The notes under the pieces were generated by a model that ran no database searches, had not been told where the DNA came from, and worked only from the letters and a program-made list of their open reading frames with translations. Of a stretch of 64,000 nucleotides of DNA, positions 3,254 through 60,739 are shown piece by piece. This DNA comes from Minisyncoccota bacterium (GTDB taxonomy: Bacteria > Patescibacteriota > Minisyncoccia > Minisyncoccales > JAQTPW01): contig JAQTPW010000001.1 of the NCBI GenBank assembly GCA_028712565.1, forward strand, positions 2,653-66,652, in the 5' to 3' direction. The position numbers were made by a program, and so were the translations under genes. Numbering within the stretch: position 1 is the stretch's first letter; every line of letters starts with the position of its first letter.

Positions 3254-3700
3254 ATGCCAAACGAAAGATTCAAATTAATAGCTTCTGTCTATTTGGTTTT
3301 AATAAGAGATAATAAAATTCTTCTCTCAAGAAGGTATAATACCGGGTATTTTGACGGCAATTATAGTTTTCCCGCGGGGCATATTGATGGAAATGAAACA
3401 TTAAAGCAAGGTTTGGTTAGAGAAGTAAAAGAAGAAATCGGCGTTGATCTGGAATCGAATGATTTGGAGTTAATCCATGTAATGGACAGAAAAATACCAG
3501 ATGACGAAAGATTGGATTTCTTTTTTAGAACAAAGAAATACTTGGGTGAGCCAAAAATTATGGAAACGAACAAGTGTGATGATTTAAGCTGGTTCGAACT
3601 TAATAATTTGCCTCAAAATATAATTCCGTATATAAAACAAGCGATTGATTCTATTTTGAATAATATAATTTACAGCGAAAGAGAAGGTTTGGAGAAATAA
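3254..3700 (+). CDS. NUDIX hydrolase
   Basis: 148 aa. Nudix box GHIDGNETLKQGLVREVKEEIGV. Confidence 0.9.
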   Translation: MPNERFKLIASVYLVLIRDNKILLSRRYNTGYFDGNYSFPAGHIDGNETLKQGLVREVKEEIGVDLESNDLELIHVMDRKIPDDERLDFFFRTKKYLGEPKIMETNKCDDLSWFELNNLPQNIIPYIKQAIDSILNNIIYSEREGLEK

Positions 3701-3701
3701 T

Positions 3702-4124
3702 ATGAAAAAACGGCCGGATGTGACGGTGAAAATGATGCTACGGTATAAAGATGAAGTTTTGATGGTAAAACATAAGGACGGGCATTTCGGTTTTCCCGGC
3801 GGGCACGTGGAGTGGGAAGAATCTTTATTCGGCGCGTTAAAAAGAGAGTTGAGGGAAGAATTGAATTATAATTTAAAGAAAGAGCCCAAATTATTTGATG
3901 TTTGGAATTACATTCCAAAGGAAAATCCCGGCGCAACGCATAAGGGCCACACGGTTTTTCTTAATTATATTTTAAAACTTAATAAAAAGCCGGTTCTTTC
4001 TTCTCCCGAGAAGCTCGGAATTTTTTGGCTGAAAAGAAAAGATATTGTTAAAATGAATATTGTTAGAGATAAACAATTTTTAGATAAAGTTTTCAAAAAG
4101 ATAATGGATAGATATATTAATTAA
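3702..4124 (+). CDS. NUDIX hydrolase
   Basis: 140 aa. Nudix box GGHVEWEESLFGALKRELREELN. Confidence 0.9.
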   Translation: MKKRPDVTVKMMLRYKDEVLMVKHKDGHFGFPGGHVEWEESLFGALKRELREELNYNLKKEPKLFDVWNYIPKENPGATHKGHTVFLNYILKLNKKPVLSSPEKLGIFWLKRKDIVKMNIVRDKQFLDKVFKKIMDRYIN

Positions 4125-4129
4125 AAACG

Positions 4130-4861
4130 ATGGAAAAAATAAACACGAAAAGTTTTATCCTTGCGGTTTATGCAAGGGGTAACGAATCTTCGGAAAAGAT
4201 AGCTTTAGTTTTACCGGGGAAACTCGACACTAAAGATTACCCGCACATGAGAAGCCATGTGGATTTTTTAGCAAACCAAGGCTTTTTTGCGCTGTCGTTC
4301 GATCCGCCGGGAACTTGGGAGAGCCCGGGAGGTATCGAGCTTTATACTATGACTAATTATCTAAAAGCCATAAATGAACTTATTGGATACTTCGGTAATA
4401 AGCCAACGATTCTTTTAGGCCATAGCAGAGGTGGCAGTATGGCGATGCTTGGAGCAATCACAAGCCCTTATGTTACTCATTTTGTTGCGGTAATGTCCAG
4501 AGCCGGAGAACGCATGCCAAATAAACCGATGAAAGCTGGTGATACCAGCATAAGCTACAGAGATATGCCTGGGAGCCCAAATGAAAAGAAAAAGTTTGAG
4601 TTGCCGTTCAGTTATTTCGAAGACTCCGCCCGTTATAATATTCTTGAAGGGCTTAAGAGTTGCACTAAATCAAAATTATTCATAATGGGAACCCGAGATA
4701 TAACCGTAAAACCGGAGGAAGTGAAGGCAGCTTATGAAGCGGCGGCACAGCCTAAGGAGTTCCGAGAAATCGATTCGGATCATGATTACCGCTGGCATTC
4801 AGATTTAATCGATAAAGTAAATCAAATTGTTGGAGATTTTCTTAGTAAGAGGGAGAAATAA
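4130..4861 (+). CDS. Alpha/beta hydrolase
   Basis: 243 aa. Nucleophile elbow GHSRGG, with C-terminal D..H (DSDHDY). Confidence 0.75.
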   Translation: MEKINTKSFILAVYARGNESSEKIALVLPGKLDTKDYPHMRSHVDFLANQGFFALSFDPPGTWESPGGIELYTMTNYLKAINELIGYFGNKPTILLGHSRGGSMAMLGAITSPYVTHFVAVMSRAGERMPNKPMKAGDTSISYRDMPGSPNEKKKFELPFSYFEDSARYNILEGLKSCTKSKLFIMGTRDITVKPEEVKAAYEAAAQPKEFREIDSDHDYRWHSDLIDKVNQIVGDFLSKREK

Positions 4862-4865
4862 AAAC

Positions 4866-5525
4866 ATGAAACAGTGGAATAAGATTTTTAAAAAAGAGGG
4901 AAAGGTTTTTCTTGAACATCAAGAAGATATGCCGAGAATTGCAAAGGTGTTTAAGGAAAAGGGAGTTAAAAAAATTTTGGATTTGGGTTGCGGTTCAGGT
5001 AGGCATACGGTTTATCTGGCACGACTTGGCTTCGATGTTTATGGTATTGATATAGCTTCTGATGGCATGAAATTAGCAAAAGTTTGGCTAAGGAAGGAAA
5101 AACTGAAGGCAAATTCAAAAATTGGGAATATTTATAAAAAACTGCCTTATACGAATAATTTTTTTGACGCCGTGATCTCAACCCAGACAATCCATCATGA
5201 AAAAATTGAGAATATCCGTAAAACCATTAGGGAAGTTGAGAGAATTTTGAGACCAGGTGGCTTGATTTTTGTGAGCGTGCGTAAGAGAAAATTAGGGAAG
5301 AATTGGAAGAGTGGCGTGATAATCGAGAAATACGGCCTTCAAAGGTCCAGATATAAAGTAATCGGTCCCAGAACCTATGTTCCAATAGAAAGAGGCGAAA
5401 AAGGATTGATTCATTATCTTTTTAACAAAGAAATAATAAAAAAAGAATTCAAAAATTTCAGCCCGCGTATCTGGGTTGATCAAGATGGAAGGCATTATTG
5501 TTTTCTAGGAAAATTAAAAAAATAA
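4866..5525 (+). CDS. Class I SAM-dependent methyltransferase
   Basis: Motif I ILDLGCGSGRH. ATG 4866 is preferred over the track start 4827, which overlaps the previous gene. Confidence 0.85.
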   Translation: MKQWNKIFKKEGKVFLEHQEDMPRIAKVFKEKGVKKILDLGCGSGRHTVYLARLGFDVYGIDIASDGMKLAKVWLRKEKLKANSKIGNIYKKLPYTNNFFDAVISTQTIHHEKIENIRKTIREVERILRPGGLIFVSVRKRKLGKNWKSGVIIEKYGLQRSRYKVIGPRTYVPIERGEKGLIHYLFNKEIIKKEFKNFSPRIWVDQDGRHYCFLGKLKK

Positions 5526-38315: not shown

Positions 38316-38663
38316 ATGATTTTTATTTATACTACGTGTAAAAATAAAAAAGAGGCGGAAAAAATCGGCTTGCATTTGGTTAAAAAACAACTGGTGGCGT
38401 GCGTGAATATTTTTCCCCTGATAAAATCTATTTTCAGTTGGCAGGGCAAAATTGAAAAAAAGAGCGAGTCGGTCTTAATTATCAAAACAAAAAAGGAAAA
38501 TTTTGCTAAAATTGAAAAAGACATTAAAAAAATAAGCGGTTTTACGACACCTTGTATCTTGGAAATTCCGATCGCGAGGGGAAACAAAGATTATTTAAAA
38601 TGGATAGAAAAAGAAGTTAAATGGAACGGGGTATTGACAACGGTTTTAAAAAAAGTAAAATAG
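38316..38663 (+). CDS. cutA: Divalent-cation tolerance protein CutA
   Basis: 115 aa. ..LVACVNIFPLIKSIFSWQGKIEKKSE... Confidence 0.85.
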   Translation: MIFIYTTCKNKKEAEKIGLHLVKKQLVACVNIFPLIKSIFSWQGKIEKKSESVLIIKTKKENFAKIEKDIKKISGFTTPCILEIPIARGNKDYLKWIEKEVKWNGVLTTVLKKVK

Positions 38664-38795: not shown

Positions 38796-38908
38796 TCGCT
38801 TCTCGCTATTGTTCAGTAAAATATAATCCGAATATCATTCGAATCGCATCCGAATGCTTCGAATATTAATTAGGAGATTCGGATTATAGATCAATAGCGA
38901 GCAGCGAT
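38796..38908. repeat. Palindromic repeat E1 (TCCGAAT-rich), homologous to an insertion in 23S
   Basis: Arms TCGCTTCTCGCTATTG (38796-38811) / CAATAGCGAGCAGCGA (38893-38908). The interior (ATAATCCGAATATCAT.., ATCCGAATGCT.., AGATTCGGATT) matches 46333-46479. Confidence 0.85.
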
Positions 38909-38930: not shown

Positions 38931-39056
38931 CCCCGTTAGAAATTTGCTTGTGGCTGATAAGATATACTAAATATTATTCTTTATTTAGTTTCAGTCTTGC
39001 TGGAAAAGATTGCTATCTTTTCCAGCCGGGAAAACATAGGCAAATTTCTAACGGGG
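38931..39056. repeat. Inverted-repeat element T1 (CCCCGTTAGAA family)
   Basis: Perfect 17-bp arms CCCCGTTAGAAATTTGC (38931-38947) / GCAAATTTCTAACGGGG (39040-39056). Inner 11-bp hairpin CTGGAAAAGAT/ATCTTTTCCAG. Confidence 0.9.
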
Positions 39057-40620: not shown

Positions 40621-41480
40621 CAATAAAAGCGCTCGGCAGTTTATTTTTCTATGCGGTTAAAATCCGCGCCTCTAGCCGTCCTAGAGAGTAGCCAAAGGAT
40701 AGTTTGTTACCGCGAGGTAATAAGCGAAGGATTCGGCGGCAAAAGACAGCCCGAACAAAAAAAGGCAAACCGACCCATCAATGAGCGGTGAGGATGGGGA
40801 AGGTCAAAGTAAAGCCTGTTTGGGATGCCCGGAAGAGAAAATTAAATAACCCGAGGAGATCTGACGTTGTTGCCATGAAAATTGCATGGTATAATGAACT
40901 TACGCAGCGTCAGAAGTCAGCTGAATCATAGTAACCTGAGTCCTAAATTTATAAAAGGACAAAGGAGAAGGATTCACTCTAGTAATTATGCTTAATCCTA
41001 ATTATATCGTAGGTTTAGTTGATGGAGAGGGAAGCTTTACGGTGTACGTAAGGCAACCTAATTCTGCCAAGAAAGTAAAACGAAGAGCGAGAGCGGAACC
41101 AAGATTTTATCTGAAACTTATAGAGAAAGATAAAGATATTCTCTATATGATCAAAAGATTCTTTTCTTGCGGAAGCGTTTATTTCCAGAAAGATAATCGT
41201 ATAAACCATCAAAATTGTTATCGATACGAAGTGGCAAACAGAAAAGATTTGGAAGAAATTATTATTCCTTTTTTCAAACGGCATCAACTGAAATTATTGT
41301 CGAAGAAAAAAGATTTCCGGATTTTCTGTGAATTAATGAGAAGAATTAAAAAAGGAGAACATCATACGAAATTAGGATTACGGCATTTATATCTTATAAA
41401 ACAAGGTATGCATTAGAGCTCGTCGCATGCGGGAAATCTGCAGGTGCGATGGGAACATCAACTCTAAGTTCGTAGAGGAT
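40621..41480 (+). mobile_element. Intron (probably group I) in 16S at the site equivalent to E. coli ~1395-1400
   Basis: Conserved ..CTTGTACTCAC stops at about 40621 and ..CTCGCCCGTCACGCC resumes at about 41482. The junction is ambiguous over a repeated ACTC (+/-6 nt). The insert carries a LAGLIDADG ORF. Confidence 0.8.
40988..41416 (+). CDS. LAGLIDADG homing endonuclease (single-motif, I-CreI-like)
   Basis: 142 aa. ..NYIVGLVDGEGSF.. motif, basic DNA-binding saddle. Located inside the 16S intron. Confidence 0.88.
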   Translation: MLNPNYIVGLVDGEGSFTVYVRQPNSAKKVKRRARAEPRFYLKLIEKDKDILYMIKRFFSCGSVYFQKDNRINHQNCYRYEVANRKDLEEIIIPFFKRHQLKLLSKKKDFRIFCELMRRIKKGEHHTKLGLRHLYLIKQGMH

Positions 41481-41804
41481 ACTCGCCCGTCACGCCAAGC
41501 GAGCTGGGAATAGCCAAAGTTCTCCGCAAGGAGACCTAAGCTGGGCTCAGTGAGAGGGGCGAAGTCGTAACAAGGCACGCGTAGGGGAACCTGCACGTGG
41601 ATAAATTATTTTTTTCTAGTATTTCTTAATGAGATACTAGAGTCGACTAAAGTTGAAGGGCGAAAATTTTCTCTTTAACTTTAAGGTGTTAATCTCTAAC
41701 CTAAAATAAAGATTCCTTGGTCTCGCGGAACGAGACCCGGGACAACTCTAAAGGACTAAATCGTGGAAACTAGTAACTGGTTTACTAGTAACTAGTAACA
41801 AACT

Positions 41805-42614: not shown

Positions 42615-43082
42615 ATGCAAATACCGGCAAAAATTTTAAAATTCTTGGATTCGAAAAAGATAAAATATGTTGTAATAAATCATAGGACAGTTTATACTGC
42701 TTATGATAAAGCCACGACGTTGAAGGTGAAACCGAATGTGATTGGAAAGACACTGGTTTTGAAAATAGATTCCAACTTAATTATGGTTTTGGTGCCGGGA
42801 AATAAAAATTTGGATTTGTCAAAAATAAAAAAAGCAGTTGGTGTCCAAAAAATTAATATAGTTTCTGAAACGATTATAAAAAATAAATTCAAGGGAATAA
42901 AAATCGGCGCGATTCCGCCAGCGGCGGAAATTTGGAAATTACGGATATTTATTGATAATAATTTGATGAAAGAAAAAAATATTTTTGTAAATTCGGGAAT
43001 TTACGAAGCATCATTCAAATTATCGCCAAAAGTTTTCGAAAAGTTGGGAGCGGTCGTGGGAAATTTTGGCAAACCCCGTTAG
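42615..43082 (+). CDS. YbaK/ProX-type aminoacyl-tRNA trans-editing (deacylase) domain protein
   Basis: 155 aa. ..VIGKTLVLKID..LIMVLVPGNKNLDLSKIKK.. layout of the YbaK family. The stop codon TAG lies inside the arm of repeat T2 (CCCCGTTAG). Confidence 0.65.
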   Translation: MQIPAKILKFLDSKKIKYVVINHRTVYTAYDKATTLKVKPNVIGKTLVLKIDSNLIMVLVPGNKNLDLSKIKKAVGVQKINIVSETIIKNKFKGIKIGAIPPAAEIWKLRIFIDNNLMKEKNIFVNSGIYEASFKLSPKVFEKLGAVVGNFGKPR

Positions 43083-43185
43083 AAGTTTTGCTAAGATCTG
43101 TGGTAGATTTATAATTTTAAAGATCAAATCGGCTCCGCCTTAAGTAAGATTTTATAAAAAATCTTTAGCGGAACTTCTAACGGGG
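43074..43185. repeat. Inverted-repeat element T2 (CCCCGTTAGAA family)
   Basis: Arms CCCCGTTAGAAGTT (43074-43087) / AACTTCTAACGGGG (43172-43185). Inner hairpin AAGATTTT-ATAA-AAAATCTT. Confidence 0.88.
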
Positions 43186-43305: not shown

Positions 43306-43456
43306 ATGCTTAATTGATTTTCATAAGCGAGAAAACGGGGGCGTGTAGCTCAGTTGGTTAGAGCACGTCACTGATAATGACGGGGTCAGAGGTTCGAGTC
43401 CTCTCATGCCCACTCTCGCTTATGAAAATCAATTATCCGACGAGCGTAGTGAGGAG
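43306..43456 (+). other. Intervening sequence: 22-bp perfect helix capped by a whole tRNA gene
   Basis: TAATTGATTTTCATAAGCGAGA (43311-43332) is the exact reverse complement of 43414-43435. tRNA-Ile (43339-43412) sits between the two arms. Confidence 0.85.
43339..43412 (+). tRNA. tRNA-Ile (anticodon GAU)
   Basis: Acceptor GGGCGTG/CATGCCC, D stem GCTC/GAGC, anticodon stem CGTCA/TGACG with loop CT-GAT-AA, T arm AGAGG-TTCGAGT-CCTCT, discriminator A. No CCA. Confidence 0.9.
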
Positions 43457-43503
43457 ATCATAATGACGAGGTCAATGGTTCGAGTCCATTATCGCCCACA
43501 AAG

Positions 43504-45781: not shown

Positions 45782-46332
45782 ATTAGCAGGATTATATATG
45801 AATATAAAAACAAAAACTATAAACAAAGAGAGCGGCTAATTTGCTGTTTTTCGCGCGTGATTGAAGCCGCTTCTCCAAAGCGGTTTTTGTTTTTTCAGTA
45901 GAGCAACTTCGACAAAAGTTTTTAAAGAAAACTTTTAAATCTTAAAAAGAGTCGAAGATGTCTTGCTGGATTTTTCCGAACGGTAAGAACTTTAAAAATT
46001 TATCAGTAAATATTAGGGTCTACAATTAATTAAATTATTTAAAACGATTATTAATTGCTAGCCAAGATGGTAAATTAAGGGCGTATGGTGGATGCCTTGG
46101 GAGATTGAGGCGATGAAGGACGCGGCGTGACTGCGATAAGCCTCGGGTAGGTGTCTAGCAACCTCTAATCCGGGGATTTCCGAATGGGGAAACCCAATTC
46201 CATTTTATGGAATTGCCCTGAGAGCAATCGAAGGGCGCATACCCGCTGAAGCGAAACATCCCAGTAAGCGGAGGAAAAGAAAAAAACTTTTTATTTCCTG
46301 AGTAGCGGCGAGCGAAAAGGAAACAGTCCAAA

Positions 46333-46479
46333 CTTATTACTCCTCACTATTGTTCGGAGCAAAATAATCCGAATATCATCCGAATCTTATCCGAATGCTA
46401 CGAATTTAATTTGCAGATTCGGATTTCATTCGTAGATTCGTATTATTTTTAGCGACGAGCAGCAGCGAGGAGTAATGAG
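46333..46479 (+). repeat. Insertion E2 in 23S domain I, homologous to intergenic repeat E1
   Basis: 24-bp imperfect stem CTTATTACTCCTCACTATTGTTCG / CGACGAGCAGCAGCGAGGAGTAATGAG. The interior aligns with 38805-38890. Confidence 0.85.
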
Positions 46480-46731
46480 GGTTGCAAGGAAATGTCGTCG
46501 GGAGCACCCCTCACGTTGAATTAAATTAATGTGAGGGGTTAACCCGAGGGAGAATATTTAGATAAAGTTTTGCTAGTTAAATGCCCCTGGAACGGGCAAC
46601 CATAGAAGGTAATAGTCCTGTAAACGAAAACAACTTTATGCTCCTTGATGTTTTTCTTAAGTACCACGGGAAAAGAAAGTCCTGTGGGAAACAGGCCCAA
46701 CTATAAGGGCCAAGACTAAATACTCAATCTC

Positions 46732-46770
<39 letters not shown>

Positions 46771-46828
46771 CAGGGAGGTGATCCCGGTGAAATAGAAACT
46801 GAAACCATATGCTCACAAAAAGTTCGAG

Positions 46829-46979
46829 CCCCGTTACAATTTTGCTCCTGACATGGCGAGCGAAGCGCGAGTGGCGAATAGCCACATCCTTTTATGGGCG
46901 CAGCGCTTCGCCCAGCAAGGGTGCACCTATTCGGTGCGCGCGCTGCGCAAAATAATTCAGAGGCAAAATTGTAACGGGG
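46829..46979 (+). repeat. Intervening sequence T3 replacing the tip of 23S helix 25 (CCCCGTTA family arms)
   Basis: Perfect 17-bp arms CCCCGTTACAATTTTGC / GCAAAATTGTAACGGGG around a GC-rich core. Flanked by ..GTTCGAG and TGAGAGCGTAC.., which correspond to E. coli ..GTGGGAGC[H25]GTGACTGCGTACC. Confidence 0.85.
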
Positions 46980-49125
46980 TGAGAGCGTACTTTTTGGAGA
47001 ACGAGCCAACGAGTTTCTTCACGCTTTTTGTCTAAGCCCCTATGGGGCGGAGGCGTAGTGAAAGCAAGCGTTAATAGCGCAAAAAAATAAAGCGTGGGGA
47101 AGACCCGAAGCCAAGCGAGCTTGCCATGATCAGGGCGAACTCTGGAGAAATCTGGAGGGAGGCCCGAACCTATGAGCCGTGCAATACTCTGGGACGAATT
47201 GTGGCAAGAAGAGAAAACCTAAACGAGCTTGGTAATAGCTGGTTCTCCCCGAAACAGCTTTGGGGCTAATGGCAGGTAAAAACTTTTGGAGGTAGAGCAC
47301 TAAATGGATAACCGTGGACTTCGTCCAGGTAATCCAATTAAACTCCGAATACCAGAAGTCTATTTCCTGCTAGCAAGACCGTGGGGGCTAAGCTTCACGG
47401 TCAAAAGGGAAGCAGCCCAGATCTTCATCTAAGGTCCCTAAACTGAGCTAAGTGTTATTAAGGAAGTGGAGTTCCTTTGATAGTTAGGAGGTTTGCTTAG
47501 AAGCAGTAACCCTTTAAAAAGTGCGTAACAGCTTACTAACTAAGGAATTCTGCGCTAAAGATTTAGGGGCTAAGCTCAGTACCGAAGATAAGAATGAACA
47601 TGCAATTTATTGCGTGTTCGTGGTAGGGGAGCGTCCTGCTCGCAGCGAAGATAAATCGTAAGATTTGTTGGAGTGAGCAGGAGTGAAAATGTTGGCATGA
47701 GTAACCGCAATGCAGGTGAAATCCCTGCACACCGAAAACCTAAAGTTTCCTTGGCAACGACAATCGGCCAAGGGTTAGGCGGTCCTTAGCTGAACCCGAA
47801 AGGGGCAAGTGATGGACAGCCGGTTAATATTCCGGCCCTCTGGCCTATTTTTTAGGAAGTGACGAAATTTAGTAACTCGGGCTAATTATGGATTTTAGTT
47901 TTTGCCTTAAGATTTTTCAAAAGGCAAGAAAATGTTCCCCCTCGGGGGGATAAATCCGAGCGAGCAAGTTTCCCAGAAAAACTTCCAAGAGTTAAATAGG
48001 CCGGATCCGTACCAAAACCGACACAGGTAGGTTGGTGTGAATACACTAAGGTGAACGGGCGAAGCCTCGTTAAGGAACTCGGCAAAAAAGTGTTCGTACG
48101 TTCGCAATAAGAACTTCCCGAACCCGCAAGGGTGAGGGACGCAGCGAAAGTTTTCCAGGCGACTGTTTATCAAAAACACAGGTCCCTGCTCAACTCGCAA
48201 GAGGATGTATAGGGGCTGAAGTCTGACCAGCGCTGGAATGTTAAAGGTGAGGGTTGCTTCCGCAAGGGAGTAGCTCATTGCACTAAGCTTCCAGTCAGCG
48301 TCCGCCGTAACTATAACGGTGTTAAAGTAGCGTATCCCCTTGTCAGGTAAGTTCTGACCCGCATGAAAGACTTCACGACTTGGAAACTGTCTCAACGAGG
48401 AGCTCGGTGAAAACACAATACCGGTAAAGATGCCGGTTACCTGCGGCTAGACGGAAAGACCCCGGGAGCTTTACTGTAACTAGATATTGAATTTTGGTTT
48501 TGGATGCGTAGCGTAGAGGTGAGGATTTGAGGCCGCGATCTCGGTTGCGGCTGATCCGACAATGAAACAGCCTTCTTTCGAAACCACAGTTCTAACCCCC
48601 ATTAAATTGGGGAGACAGTGTCTGGCGGTCAGTTTAAGTGGGGCACTTGCCTCCTAAAATGTAATGGAGGCGTTTAAAGGTCGGCTAACTCCGGATGGAA
48701 ATCGGAGTGGTCGTGCAAAGGCATAAGCCGGCTTTACTGCAAGAACTATATTTCGCGCAGTTGGGAAACCAGAACTTAGTGAACCGACGGATTCTCATAG
48801 AAAATCCGAAGATCATCAACCAAAAGTTACCCCGGGGATAACAGGCTAGTAGGACCCGCGAGTCCATATCAACGGTCCTGTTCGGCACCTCGATGTCGGC
48901 TCTCCGCATCCTGGAGGTGAAGTCGCTTCCAAGGGTCTGACTGTTCGCCAGTTAAAGCGGAACGTGAGCTGGGTTCAGTACGTCGTAAGACAGTACGGTC
49001 CCTATCTACCGTAGGCGTTGAATCTTGAGGGGACTTGGGAATAGTACGAGAGGACTTTCCTGAACTGACCTCTGGTGTACCAGCTGTTCTGCCAAGAGCA
49101 TTGCTGGGTAGCTATGTCGGGAACT

Positions 49126-49156
<31 letters not shown>

Positions 49157-49373
49157 AAACCCCAAGATTAGGATTCATAGATTCCAGAGAGACCATCTGG
49201 TCGATAGACTGCCGGTGTAAGCTCCGTAAGGGGTTAAGCCAAGCAGCACTAATAAATCATTACACAAATCTTGACTAGCAATTAATGATCATTGGAAAAT
49301 AATTTAACTAATATTTTAAACCTTAGCGAAAGGCGGCGCGTCAAACGTGCCAGGCCTCGTGAGAGGGCGCTGA

Positions 49374-59266: not shown

Positions 59267-60739
59267 ATGTTTTGTCAATATTTAAACCCAAAACCAATAT
59301 CGATTTCTTTGTCTCCTAATACTGAAAAGGATGATATCCTATTGGCTTTTAAGTTGCTTTGGAAACCTTGGCGATGGAAATTCAGCGTAAATCAGCGTAA
59401 CAATCAGCGTCAATCAGCTTCTACGATTTTAGAAGAGGAATTTAAAAAATATTTGGGAGTAAAATATGCCATATCATTTAACAGCGGGAGGTCGGCGTTG
59501 ATGGCAATATTGGCTGCTCTTTTCGGAGAGCAGGCATCCTCCGAAGCCTTGGCGAAGGAGGATGAGGAGGTTCTTTTACAAGCCTTCACTTGTAACGCAG
59601 TTCCAAATCCGGTTATTTGGTCCCGCCTTCGCGAGGCCGAAGCTCGCTACGGCGAGGCAAAGGCCCGCCTTCGCGAGGCCGAAGCTCGCTACGGCGAGGC
59701 AAAGGCCCGCCTTCGCGATGACGCTTCGGCGAGGCAAGCAGGCTTGAAACCTATTTATGTAGATTGCAACGAAAATACATTTAACATTGATCCAGAAGAT
59801 TTAAGGCGTAAGATTACGTCAAACAGCCGCGCCGTAATAGTCCAGCACACTTTCGGTTTGCCCGCAGAAATGGATGAAATTATAAAAATTTGTCAGGCAC
59901 ATAATTTAATATTAATTGAAGATTGCGCGCATTCTTTAGGTGCTACCTATAAAGGAAAAAAGATCGGAACCTTCGGCAGAGTTTCATTTTTCAGTTTTTC
60001 CAGAGATAAAGTAATTTCTTCAGTTTACGGCGGAATGGTAGTTACTTCTGATGATGAACTTGCAAAAAAAATTAAGGAATACCAGGAAAGAATCGGTTAT
60101 CCTTCATATTTTTGGATTCTTCAGCAATTATTGCACCCTGTATTAATGAATTGGCTTATTTTGCCAACATATAAATATTTTGGAAAATATTTATTGATTT
60201 TATTCCAATGGCTTCACATTTTTTCAAAAGCCGTCCATTGGAAGGAAAAGAGGGGGCAAAAACCCTGTTATTTTCCAAAGCGTTTACCAGATGCCTTGGC
60301 AATTTTGGCTCAAAACCAATTTCGGAAATTGGAAAAATTCAACCGGCATCGCCGGGAAATCGCCGAATTTTATAATCGCGAATTAGCCGATACCAGCTAC
60401 CAGCTACCAGTTACCAGCGACGGCGACATTTTCCTTCGTTATGCAATAAAACATCCGAACGCTCATCAAATTATTCAGAAGGCATGGAGTCATAATCTAT
60501 TGGTTGGGGATTGGTATACAACGCCGATTGCTCCGCATGATACTAAATTAGAAAAAATGCAATATACTTTAGGGAGTTGCCCAAATGCGGAAAAATTGGC
60601 AAAAATTACATTAAATTTGCCGACTCATATTAATATTTCGGTGAAAGATGCCCAAAAAATCGTAGACTTTTTAAAAAAAATAAGTAAAAACAATAAAGAC
60701 CATAATACGATTTCCACGGCCGTAGAAAAAGTATTATAA
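59267..60739 (+). CDS. DegT/DnrJ/EryC1/StrS-family PLP aminotransferase carrying several in-frame repeat insertions
   Basis: 490 aa, against my recollection that this family is usually about 370-400 aa. ..ISFNSGRSALMAIL.., ..LIEDCAHSLGATYKGKKIG.., ..FFSFSRDKVIS.. (PLP Lys context). Confidence 0.85.
   Translation: MFCQYLNPKPISISLSPNTEKDDILLAFKLLWKPWRWKFSVNQRNNQRQSASTILEEEFKKYLGVKYAISFNSGRSALMAILAALFGEQASSEALAKEDEEVLLQAFTCNAVPNPVIWSRLREAEARYGEAKARLREAEARYGEAKARLRDDASARQAGLKPIYVDCNENTFNIDPEDLRRKITSNSRAVIVQHTFGLPAEMDEIIKICQAHNLILIEDCAHSLGATYKGKKIGTFGRVSFFSFSRDKVISSVYGGMVVTSDDELAKKIKEYQERIGYPSYFWILQQLLHPVLMNWLILPTYKYFGKYLLILFQWLHIFSKAVHWKEKRGQKPCYFPKRLPDALAILAQNQFRKLEKFNRHRREIAEFYNRELADTSYQLPVTSDGDIFLRYAIKHPNAHQIIQKAWSHNLLVGDWYTTPIAPHDTKLEKMQYTLGSCPNAEKLAKITLNLPTHINISVKDAQKIVDFLKKISKNNKDHNTISTAVEKVL
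59381..59418 (+). repeat. In-frame short tandem repeat (A)ATCAGCGTAA
   Basis: TTCAGCGTAAATCAGCGTAACAATCAGCGTCAATCAGC encodes FSVNQRNNQRQS. Same unit as in the 16S leader (39211-39250). Confidence 0.8.
59525..59570 (+). repeat. In-frame GC-rich palindromic insert
   Basis: CCTCCGAAGCCTTGGCGAAGGAGG folds as CCTCC/GGAGG plus GCC/GGC. Encodes ..ASSEALAKEDE.. between conserved AILAAL and EVLLQAFTC. Confidence 0.65.
59622..59742 (+). repeat. In-frame 42-bp GC-rich tandem repeat (2 full units plus a diverged third)
   Basis: CCCGCCTTCGCGAGGCCGAAGCTCGCTACGGCGAGGCAAAGG at 59622-59663 and 59664-59705, with a diverged copy to about 59742. Encodes RLREAEARYGEAKA x2. Confidence 0.9.

Follow-up and report, generated by a model that had tools for sequence, protein, structure and literature searches.

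A multi-copy inverted-repeat family with 4-bp target duplications, and repeated occupancy of helix 25 of 23S rRNA by its members, in a Minisyncoccota bacterium and in other phyla

The window analysed here is the whole stretch of 64,000 nucleotides from a Minisyncoccota bacterium (GenBank assembly GCA_028712565.1, contig JAQTPW010000001.1, positions 2,653 to 66,652). It contains the rRNA operon region of a bacterium of the candidate phyla radiation (CPR), with the gene order 16S, ybaK-like gene, tRNA-Ile, tRNA-Ala, SWIB and mechanosensitive-channel-like genes, 23S and 5S. Three hairpin-forming elements, designated T1, T2 and T3, are situated in this region and have the termini CCCCGTTA[G/C]AA / TT[C/G]TAACGGGG in common; T3 is located in 23S rRNA, in place of the tip of helix 25. 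[quoted passage not shown] The features of the locus are as follows:

38931-39056, strand not assigned: T1, a family member of 126 nt in the leader of the 16S gene, whose 5' end follows 195 nt downstream
43074-43185, strand not assigned: T2, a family member of 112 nt in the 3' end of the ybaK-like gene, with tRNA-Ile 153 nt downstream
46829-46979, + strand: T3, a family member of 151 nt in place of the tip of 23S helix 25
46822-46828, + strand: native base of helix 25, 5' strand GUUCGAG, which pairs with 46980-46986 and has two compensatory pairs in comparison with relatives
46980-46986, + strand: native base of helix 25, 3' strand UGAGAGC; GAG/UGA are conserved in relatives
46065-49273, + strand: 23S rRNA gene, the host of T3 (RF02541, 2286 bits, model positions 1-2925)
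42615-43082, + strand: ybaK-like gene with an aminoacyl-tRNA editing domain (PF04073, E 1e-22)
39252 to about 41605: 16S rRNA gene, interrupted by an intron-like insert with a LAGLIDADG open reading frame (ORF)

A first-pass annotation, made from the sequence alone, had described the three elements with their coordinates and arms, and all were found as given there. The arms are 14-17 bp long, those of T1 being CCCCGTTAGAAATTTGC and GCAAATTTCTAACGGGG. The sequence CCCCGTTASAA occurs exactly six times in the window, and the six sites form three inward-facing pairs. When one mismatch was allowed, seven sites were detected, compared with a mean of 1.6 in shuffled windows; none of 100 dinucleotide-preserving shuffles reached seven, and the paired pattern did not occur in shuffled windows. 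T3 agrees with T1 at 15 of 17 arm positions and deviates from both T1 and T2 at arm position 9, where the variant C, together with its compensating G, recurs among the family copies listed below (L006, L051 and L072; L numbers denote retrieved loci). Beyond about 17 nt per arm the interiors of the three elements are unrelated, as had been noticed before, with local alignment scores at the level of shuffled sequences and with GC contents of 0.32 (T1), 0.26 (T2) and 0.59 (T3). Folding into long hairpins gave z values of -11.0 for T1, -5.7 for T2 and -8.2 for T3 against shuffled controls. No curated covariance model of Rfam, group I and II introns included, matched T1-T3 at gathering thresholds, and at lax E-values only sub-threshold, hairpin-like matches were obtained. 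The motif GCGCTTCGCCCAGC in the core of T3, for which a resemblance to an ftsZ/eno repeat had been claimed, was single in the window at up to two mismatches and was rejected as a link to another repeat, since a second copy was absent.

In the Rfam alignment of large subunit rRNA, T3 falls in the hairpin of helix 25. Relatives, which were reached via a conserved neighbour gene, possess tips of 12-70 nt between a conserved GAG on the 5' side and a conserved UGA on the 3' side; since these flanks are identical to those of T3, the element replaces the tip of the helix, in agreement with the earlier proposal. The native tips of relatives likewise begin with CC(C) and end with (G)GG. The flanks CGAG and TGAG of T3 were considered as a target duplication, which was rejected, since GAG...UGA represents the conserved base of helix 25 in relatives.

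For the consensus fold and the analysis of covariation, four T3-type sequences of the same orientation were used. The outer part of the fold consists of a native base of 4 bp, a GA/AG motif and then an unvarying stem of 19 bp. In T3 the stem base comprises 19 contiguous pairs and 3 more, is invariant in the four orthologues, and corresponds in length to the approximately two helical turns of duplex at the base of intervening sequences. In the interior, three hairpins arise from an inner stem; the loops of two of them are invariant and complementary to one another (GAAUA and UAUUC). Pairs changed on both sides numbered 8 (2 in the native base, 6 in the interior), compared with 2.8 in shuffles; none of 500 shuffles reached 8, and structures slid by 1-3 columns yielded 0 to 2. 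This is modest but real support, from four sequences, for selection on pairing in T3. Since the stem base is invariant, while the interior and the rRNA flanks change, the sequence as well as the pairing appears to be constrained. A gene for RNase III was not detected in the 64-kb window, to which this search was confined.

A pattern search of the kind proposed in the first-pass annotation was carried out with one genome per species, using CCCCGTTANAA, a gap of 71-131 nt, and then TTNTAACGGGG. It yielded at least 120 loci with at least 126 usable copies of 94-162 nt, which have the same termini and are distributed over more than 10 phyla. Among the matches listed, Patescibacteria (Saccharibacteria, Nealson-, Staskawicz-, Buchanan-, Nomurabacteria and others) make up about half of the hosts, and the rest comprise Omnitrophota, Planctomycetota, Desulfobacterota, Nitrospirota, Elusimicrobia, Bacillota and some further groups. 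The first 11 bp of the ends were imposed by the scan pattern, except for the free position 9. This position was G in 235 of the 252 arms of listed copies, and position 12 was A or G in 240 of 252; thus the end sequence is conserved beyond the constraint of the search. The perfect inverted repeat of the listed copies has 8-17 bp (median 13), and the consensus end is CCCCGTTAGAA-R-T, about 13 bp. Nearly all of 60 sampled copies (97%) folded with z < -3. No protein-coding capacity was found in the listed copies, and the interiors of T1-T3 were common to none of the 126. A recurrent neighbouring gene was not found beside the listed copies, the neighbours being LepA, PNPase, PBP2, a type II secretion ATPase and other housekeeping genes. 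Copy numbers were three in the window, up to five in L146, and several in single metagenome-assembled genomes (MAGs). Mini members of 26-30 nt, which are barely more than two ends, were also observed (L117, L127, L037, L042, L063, L098), some of them with 4-bp duplications, namely TTAA (L117, 2660-2688) and CTTG (L127, 6706-6734); the mini member of L127 directly follows the channel gene that precedes 23S.

Identical flanks of 4 bp were present in 79 of the 126 listed copies (63%), compared with 11.6 in a control in which left and right flanks were re-paired at random; identical flanks of 3 and 5 bp were found in 4 and 3 listed copies, respectively. The flanks follow the consensus T-N-N-A, with T at position -4 in 110 and A at position -1 in 109 of the 126. 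The commonest duplications in the listed copies were TAAA/TTTA (28), TGAA/TTCA (24), TCAA/TTGA (12) and CATA/TATG (6), and duplications were equally frequent in CPR (41/59) and non-CPR hosts (31/52).

In the window, T2 has an exact flanking duplication, CAAA/CAAA. It had been suggested that this element supplies the stop codon of the ybaK-like gene, and the ORF 42615-43082 indeed ends at the TAG within the left arm of T2, the final two codons being derived from T2 as well. The gene product now ends with ...F G K P R; deletion of T2 and one copy of CAAA in silico gives back ...F G K A K K and a stop codon, which is a plausible reading frame. Many of the listed copies abut gene ends in a similar way; the stop codon stems from the TAG of the repeat in about 12 cases and from a duplicated TGA or TAA in about 12. 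One member was found nested in another (L122), the outer one being flanked by exact TTCA/TTCA. The nested pair (L122, 2599-2766; also in L123) is situated at the 3' end of the large serine recombinase gene of a prophage on an IMG/VR contig; this ORF was considered as a transposase and dismissed, being a prophage serine integrase and not a DDE transposase. A search of viral contigs yielded only two loci, and phage carriage thus fails to explain the spread of the family. A putative composite element in L010 proved to be an inverted duplication of 324 bp around an Ig-domain ORF; its arms (2046-2369 and 4832-5155) each contain a family member of 94 nt, and further contigs of the same MAG bear this repeat together with its flanks.

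These data show a multi-copy, non-coding inverted-repeat family with 4-bp target duplication, which occurs in many phyla and repeatedly occupies helix 25. The proposal of a single hairpin-forming, possibly mobile, MITE-like family is thereby supported, with at least 126 copies, 4-bp duplications, and nested, inverted and filled-versus-empty states; of the attributes of MITEs, terminal inverted repeats, target duplication, small non-coding elements in multiple copies, and traces of movement were found. Repetitive extragenic palindromic (REP) elements do not generate target duplications and are associated with a gene for a Y1 transposase (RAYT). An assignment of the present family to the REP/RAYT type is therefore disfavoured by its target duplications and by the lack of a recurrent neighbouring gene.

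None of the 126 listed copies from the genome scan is located in an rRNA gene. A metagenome scan was made with the conserved 23S segment GAAATAGNANCTGAAACC, followed at a distance of 15-35 nt by CCCCGTTA; it gave 15 loci, 10 of which have a full family member at exactly the same nucleotide as T3 (...GAG|CCCC....GGGG|TGA...). Group A (L141, L145 and L147) consists of T3 orthologues with the ends CCCCGTTACAATTTTGC, lengths of 152-153 nt and identities of 84-88% with T3 and 83-88% across the group; in L140 the T3-type interior is inverted at the same site (85% identity when reversed, 71% forward). Group B (L135; L143, which is the same as L146) has the ends CCCCGTTAGAAATTTGG and an AT-rich interior of 133 nt, and group C (L138, the same as L139; L142) the ends CCCCGTTAGACAAAGC and interiors of 126-145 nt. 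The interiors of groups B and C are unrelated to T3. In a neighbour-joining tree from about 520 nt of 23S flanks, the hosts of groups A and B form one clade, which also includes a short helix 25 (Nealsonbacteria) and an unrelated helix-25 hairpin of 70 nt (L128). L128 is the closest relative of the window in the comparison of 23S flanks (87%) and carries a different occupant in helix 25; the comparison of 23S genes suggested in the first-pass annotation showed that the occupants differ among close relatives. The hosts of group C are remote, with 58-65% identity in the 23S flanks. The RpoD encoded beside the 23S gene of L142 is 96% identical to a protein from Thermodesulfovibrionales, which places group C in Nitrospirota; genomes of Nitrospirota also contain intergenic copies with duplications (L047, L067, L114).

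One 23S gene, in L146, contains three group-B copies in three helices, with mutual identities of 85-90% (2045-2175, 2354-2486 and 3683-3815; L143 is the same region reversed). The sites are in domain I (at about model position 400), in helix 25, and in one further helix, which by comparison with the E. coli sequence is presumably helix 63. If all three copies were excised, this 23S rRNA would consist of four pieces. The helix-25 copy of L135 is 87-91% identical to the L146 copies, and in L135 the domain-I site is empty. Upstream of the L146 23S gene two shorter members with TAAA-type flanks are located (306-371 and 1152-1213). Short helix-25 tips which begin with CCCCGTTA were found in L134/L137 and L136; they were selected by the search pattern itself and are absent in four unselected relatives. 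They may be remnants, or else a sign that the repeat mimics the native stem.

Taken together, the best explanation appears to be that T1-T3 are copies of a mobile, MITE-like hairpin family and that T3 has settled in helix 25, and we consider this probable. Elements with ends of about 13 bp and any interior would be copied at the DNA level by a transposase supplied in trans, leaving a 4-bp duplication of the type T-N-N-A, and copies would survive where a gene-dense genome tolerates them, i.e., in last codons, spacers and surface helices of rRNA. T3 would then be a copy of old standing, inherited vertically, which has taken the place of the helix-25 tip; it would be transcribed within pre-23S rRNA, and its perfect stem of 19-22 bp would stack on the conserved GA/AG base. 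T1 in the 16S leader and T2 at the 3' end of ybaK would be passenger copies in the same operon. As to the fate of T3 in the transcript, excision by RNase III in the manner of classical intervening sequences, with a 23S rRNA in separate pieces as the result, seems somewhat the better guess, since a long duplex is a substrate of RNase III and by analogy with helix-25 intervening sequences and the view of Tsurumaki et al.; T3 could nearly as well be retained as an expansion segment.

Several points weigh against the mobile family as an explanation of all these features. Among the listed copies, 47 of 126 do not have identical flanks, and those of T1 (ATAA/TAAA) have TAA in common and agree only with an offset of 1 nt. 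The helix-25 copies, T3 included, are without target duplication, and the occurrence of three subfamilies from two phyla at one nucleotide is not predicted by simple random transposition. The conservation of the T3 interior argues that more than a cleavable stem may be under selection. Hosts are mostly metagenome bins, and some taxon labels could be wrong; in general this is disfavoured by the size of the hosts' contigs, which among the matches listed include 1.2 and 3.3 Mb. Neither an autonomous element nor a transposase was found in about 0.9 Mb of retrieved loci, in plasmids, or beside any copy. This search comprised end pairs 200-4000 bp apart with or without matching flanks, solo ends by long ORFs, and recurrent ORFs, and in the retrieved loci it turned up housekeeping genes only; a search of plasmids with a deltaproteobacterial subfamily member gave no match.

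For the shared boundaries in helix 25, several causes were considered: site-specific entry; exchange or flipping of interiors through the repeats of 13-19 bp, by recombination after one or a few ancient insertions; and insertion followed by trimming, where selection would favour direct stacking of the stem on the GA/AG motif. Recombination and turnover agree with the inverted copy of L140 and with the variety of occupants among close relatives. For the cases in Nitrospirota, the same nucleotide must have been entered at least once more.

The enzyme which moves the family could perhaps be a transposase of the IS1380/piggyBac type acting in trans, a tentative suggestion from the signature of the ends. 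The ends of piggyBac elements start with CCC, their target duplications are TTAA with the variants TAAA, TCAA and TATG, and IS1380 is the prokaryotic relative (PMC10813416). The ends of the present family also start with CCC, and its 4-bp duplications include TAAA, TGAA, TCAA and TATG; thus CC(C) ends and a duplication of 4-5 bp were found, and a shared repeat sequence or an adjacent transposase was not. ISEcp1 and IS1678, IS1380-family elements from plasmids, have ends which begin with CCT, IS1678 with a direct repeat of 5 bp, and only the initial CC is common with the family repeat, which is a further point against this assignment. No match to the ISEcp1 transposase was obtained by tblastn in any locus, and no IS1380-like ORF was present.

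Could the hairpins be processing signals and not selfish DNA? The stem base would then be kept for a host nuclease or an RNA-binding protein (RNase III or a lineage-specific factor), and T1-T3 would act in cleavage or stability. All three window copies are indeed located in one rRNA operon region on the transcribed strand, with none elsewhere in the 64 kb, T1 being in the 16S leader, T2 before tRNA-Ile and T3 at a classical site of intervening sequences; the 19-bp stem base stays invariant in T3 orthologues while the interior and the native base of helix 25 change, helix-25 copies from two phyla have no duplications, and many copies follow immediately after stop codons, as hairpins at mRNA 3' ends would. 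However, direct 4-bp repeats flank almost two thirds of the listed copies, and such target-site duplications mean that a recognition site for a nuclease is not the whole story. The nested insertion, the truncation of a coding sequence by T2 and the inversion in place indicate insertion at the DNA level, and one and the same sequence-specific factor would be required by hosts in more than 10 phyla; RNase III, to our knowledge, has no such sequence requirement. Since a processing signal can coexist with mobility, as in Correia elements, some such role could be added to a mobile family, and as a replacement for it this explanation seems unlikely.

Quite improbable, in our opinion, is a site-specific rRNA element: the whole family, or one of its branches, would have the tip of helix 25 as its target or as its place of origin and would spread there by homing or repeat recombination, with the intergenic copies as escapees. 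Such an element would account for three subfamilies with unrelated interiors at an identical nucleotide, without duplications, in Parcubacteria-like hosts and Thermodesulfovibrionales, and for the different occupant in L128 while more distant hosts have T3; the length of the repeats would suffice for an exchange or inversion of interiors, and short tips beginning with CCCCGTTA exist. On the other hand, the genome scan did not yield a single listed copy in an rRNA gene, the intergenic copies are flanked by duplications of the usual kind at diverse T-N-N-A sites, two other helices are occupied as well in L146, and the short tips were picked by the search pattern, with four unselected relatives lacking them. 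Chance resemblance of T3, as an ordinary lineage-specific extension of helix 25, to T1 and T2 can hardly be believed: native tips of relatives also start with CC(C) and end with (G)GG, and T3 differs at position 9 and has a GC-rich interior, but the arm identity between T3 and T1 is too extensive, the C at position 9 recurs in the family together with its compensating G, the paired pattern was never seen in shuffles, and in other 23S genes this site is taken by members of the G type. Beyond the mobile, MITE-like family as preferred above, one may speculate that the family is no chance passenger in rRNA but a module which is mobile among rRNA genes and fitted to the helix-25 tip, and less to other surface helices, with the intergenic copies as reservoir or escapees. 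This rather doubtful extension would include duplication-free entry at one nucleotide, by homing or repeat-guided recombination, from Patescibacteria to Nitrospirota, and the module would act as a portable RNase III site splitting 23S rRNA or as a portable expansion segment.

Some other features of the region may be added. A second, unrelated hairpin family is represented at 38796-38907 (16S leader, adjoining T1) and at 46333-46479 (domain I of 23S), where an insert of 131 nt shows about 81% identity with the former over 73 or more nt; both sequences are rich in CCGAAT/TCGAAT and fold with z of about -8. From these likenesses and that of T1 and T3, both large hairpin inserts in 23S have paralogues in the 16S leader. 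No copy of the second family was found among 148 retrieved loci; L124 carries a TTCGAAA-repeat hairpin of similar style at the same 23S site as 46333-46479. A third extra segment of 23S, also in domain I, is a palindromic insert of about 59 nt (46498-46557). The 16S gene contains, near its 3' end, an insert of about 860 nt (approximately 40622-41480) with the LAGLIDADG ORF at 40988-41416 (PF00961, E 1.5e-17) and a weak, sub-threshold match to group-II D1-D4 at 40876-40973. The 16S 3' end (41580-41615) reads ...GGAACCTGCACGTGGATAAATTATTTTT; the anti-Shine-Dalgarno tail CACCUCCUU was not found there or nearby.

A promoter-like site is located upstream of T1 (38634-38661), and another, TTGCTA-16 nt-TATAAT (10/12), inside T2 (43088-43115), 225 nt upstream of tRNA-Ile; the latter recalls the promoters carried by Correia elements (mentioned in PMC3184786). 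Overall, matches to the promoter consensus were not enriched in the rRNA operon region. A motif of 48 nt (..TATATTATTAACATAGCTATCGC..) occurs four times (41857, 42398, 52674 and 53333), twice in the spacer between 16S and tRNA genes, and overlaps promoter-like hexamers. tRNA-Ile (43339-43413) is flanked by a perfect inverted repeat of 22 bp (43311-43332 / 43414-43435), which looks like a processing stem for a single tRNA. The sequence 43460-43499, immediately before tRNA-Ala, has 80% identity to the 3' half of tRNA-Ile and is possibly a tRNA remnant or a duplication. At 59622-59705, GC-rich tandem repeats with a spacing of 21 nt were noticed; the genome is otherwise AT-rich.

MITEs and rRNA intervening sequences are both known kinds of elements, and the family is not a categorically new system; new are its breadth, the T-N-N-A duplication, the recurrence at one rRNA nucleotide in two phyla, multiple copies in one 23S gene, and the conserved, structured interior of the T3 lineage. 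In the library of papers searched, none connected a MITE family with CPR genomes or with intervening sequences of bacterial rRNA, and a search with the repeat sequence gave unrelated primers only. The origin of such intervening sequences has been under debate from the early 1990s on, and no source element is known to have been identified. A 23S insert that is linked by sequence to a repeat family with hallmarks of DNA transposition would provide a concrete origin for short rRNA inserts of CPR bacteria. The moving enzyme, the stems as RNase III sites which fragment 23S rRNA, and mobile hairpins as a route to expansion segments are now testable questions. The host range is unusually broad among uncultivated anaerobes, and the family should be a useful marker of gene flow between lineages.

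Intervening sequences which are excised from 23S rRNA by RNase III are known in helices 25 and 45 of Salmonella, Leptospira, Campylobacter and Coxiella (PMC2801512, PMC4990558). T3 resembles them in its position at the tip of helix 25, in the long self-complementary stem replacing the native tip, and in its patchy distribution among relatives, and a selfish origin of these sequences has long been suspected. T3 differs in being tied to a genome-wide repeat family found across phyla, which shows inverted-repeat ends as well as target duplications, and in having no ORF, whereas the sequences of Leptospira and Coxiella carry one; the excision of T3 is presumed. Inserts are present in the majority of CPR 23S genes; those which are short, have no ORF and lie at known sites of intervening sequences were left uncharacterised by Tsurumaki et al. 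(2024, PMC11270868), who explained the spreading of inserts in rRNA by LAGLIDADG homing. Inserts of the T3 type are probably the same objects as the short CPR inserts at 23IS2 and 23IS4 (PMC11270868): both are smaller than 200 bp, without ORF, neither group I nor group II introns, and at sites of intervening sequences. The difference is that they are linked here to a MITE-like family which also lives outside rRNA and outside CPR.

With IS1380/piggyBac elements the family has CC/CCC ends and 4-bp duplications in common, and there is a precedent in rRNA genes, since Pokey is a piggyBac element of Daphnia rDNA (PMC10813416, PMC3849761). Unlike these elements, it was found without a transposase, and its repeat did not match the ends of ISEcp1 or IS1678. 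Correia elements of Neisseria and the palindromic elements of Rickettsia are about 100-150 bp long, with inverted-repeat ends, target duplication, no known transposase and hairpins in transcripts; the former are cut by RNase III and carry promoters, and the latter insert within genes without destroying them. The likeness extends to size, inverted-repeat ends, target duplication and hairpins, and, as with Correia elements, an autonomous partner is lacking. Those elements are, however, confined to one genus and have common interiors, whereas the present family keeps about 13 bp per end, extends over more than 10 phyla, has the T-N-N-A duplication and occurs in rRNA helices.

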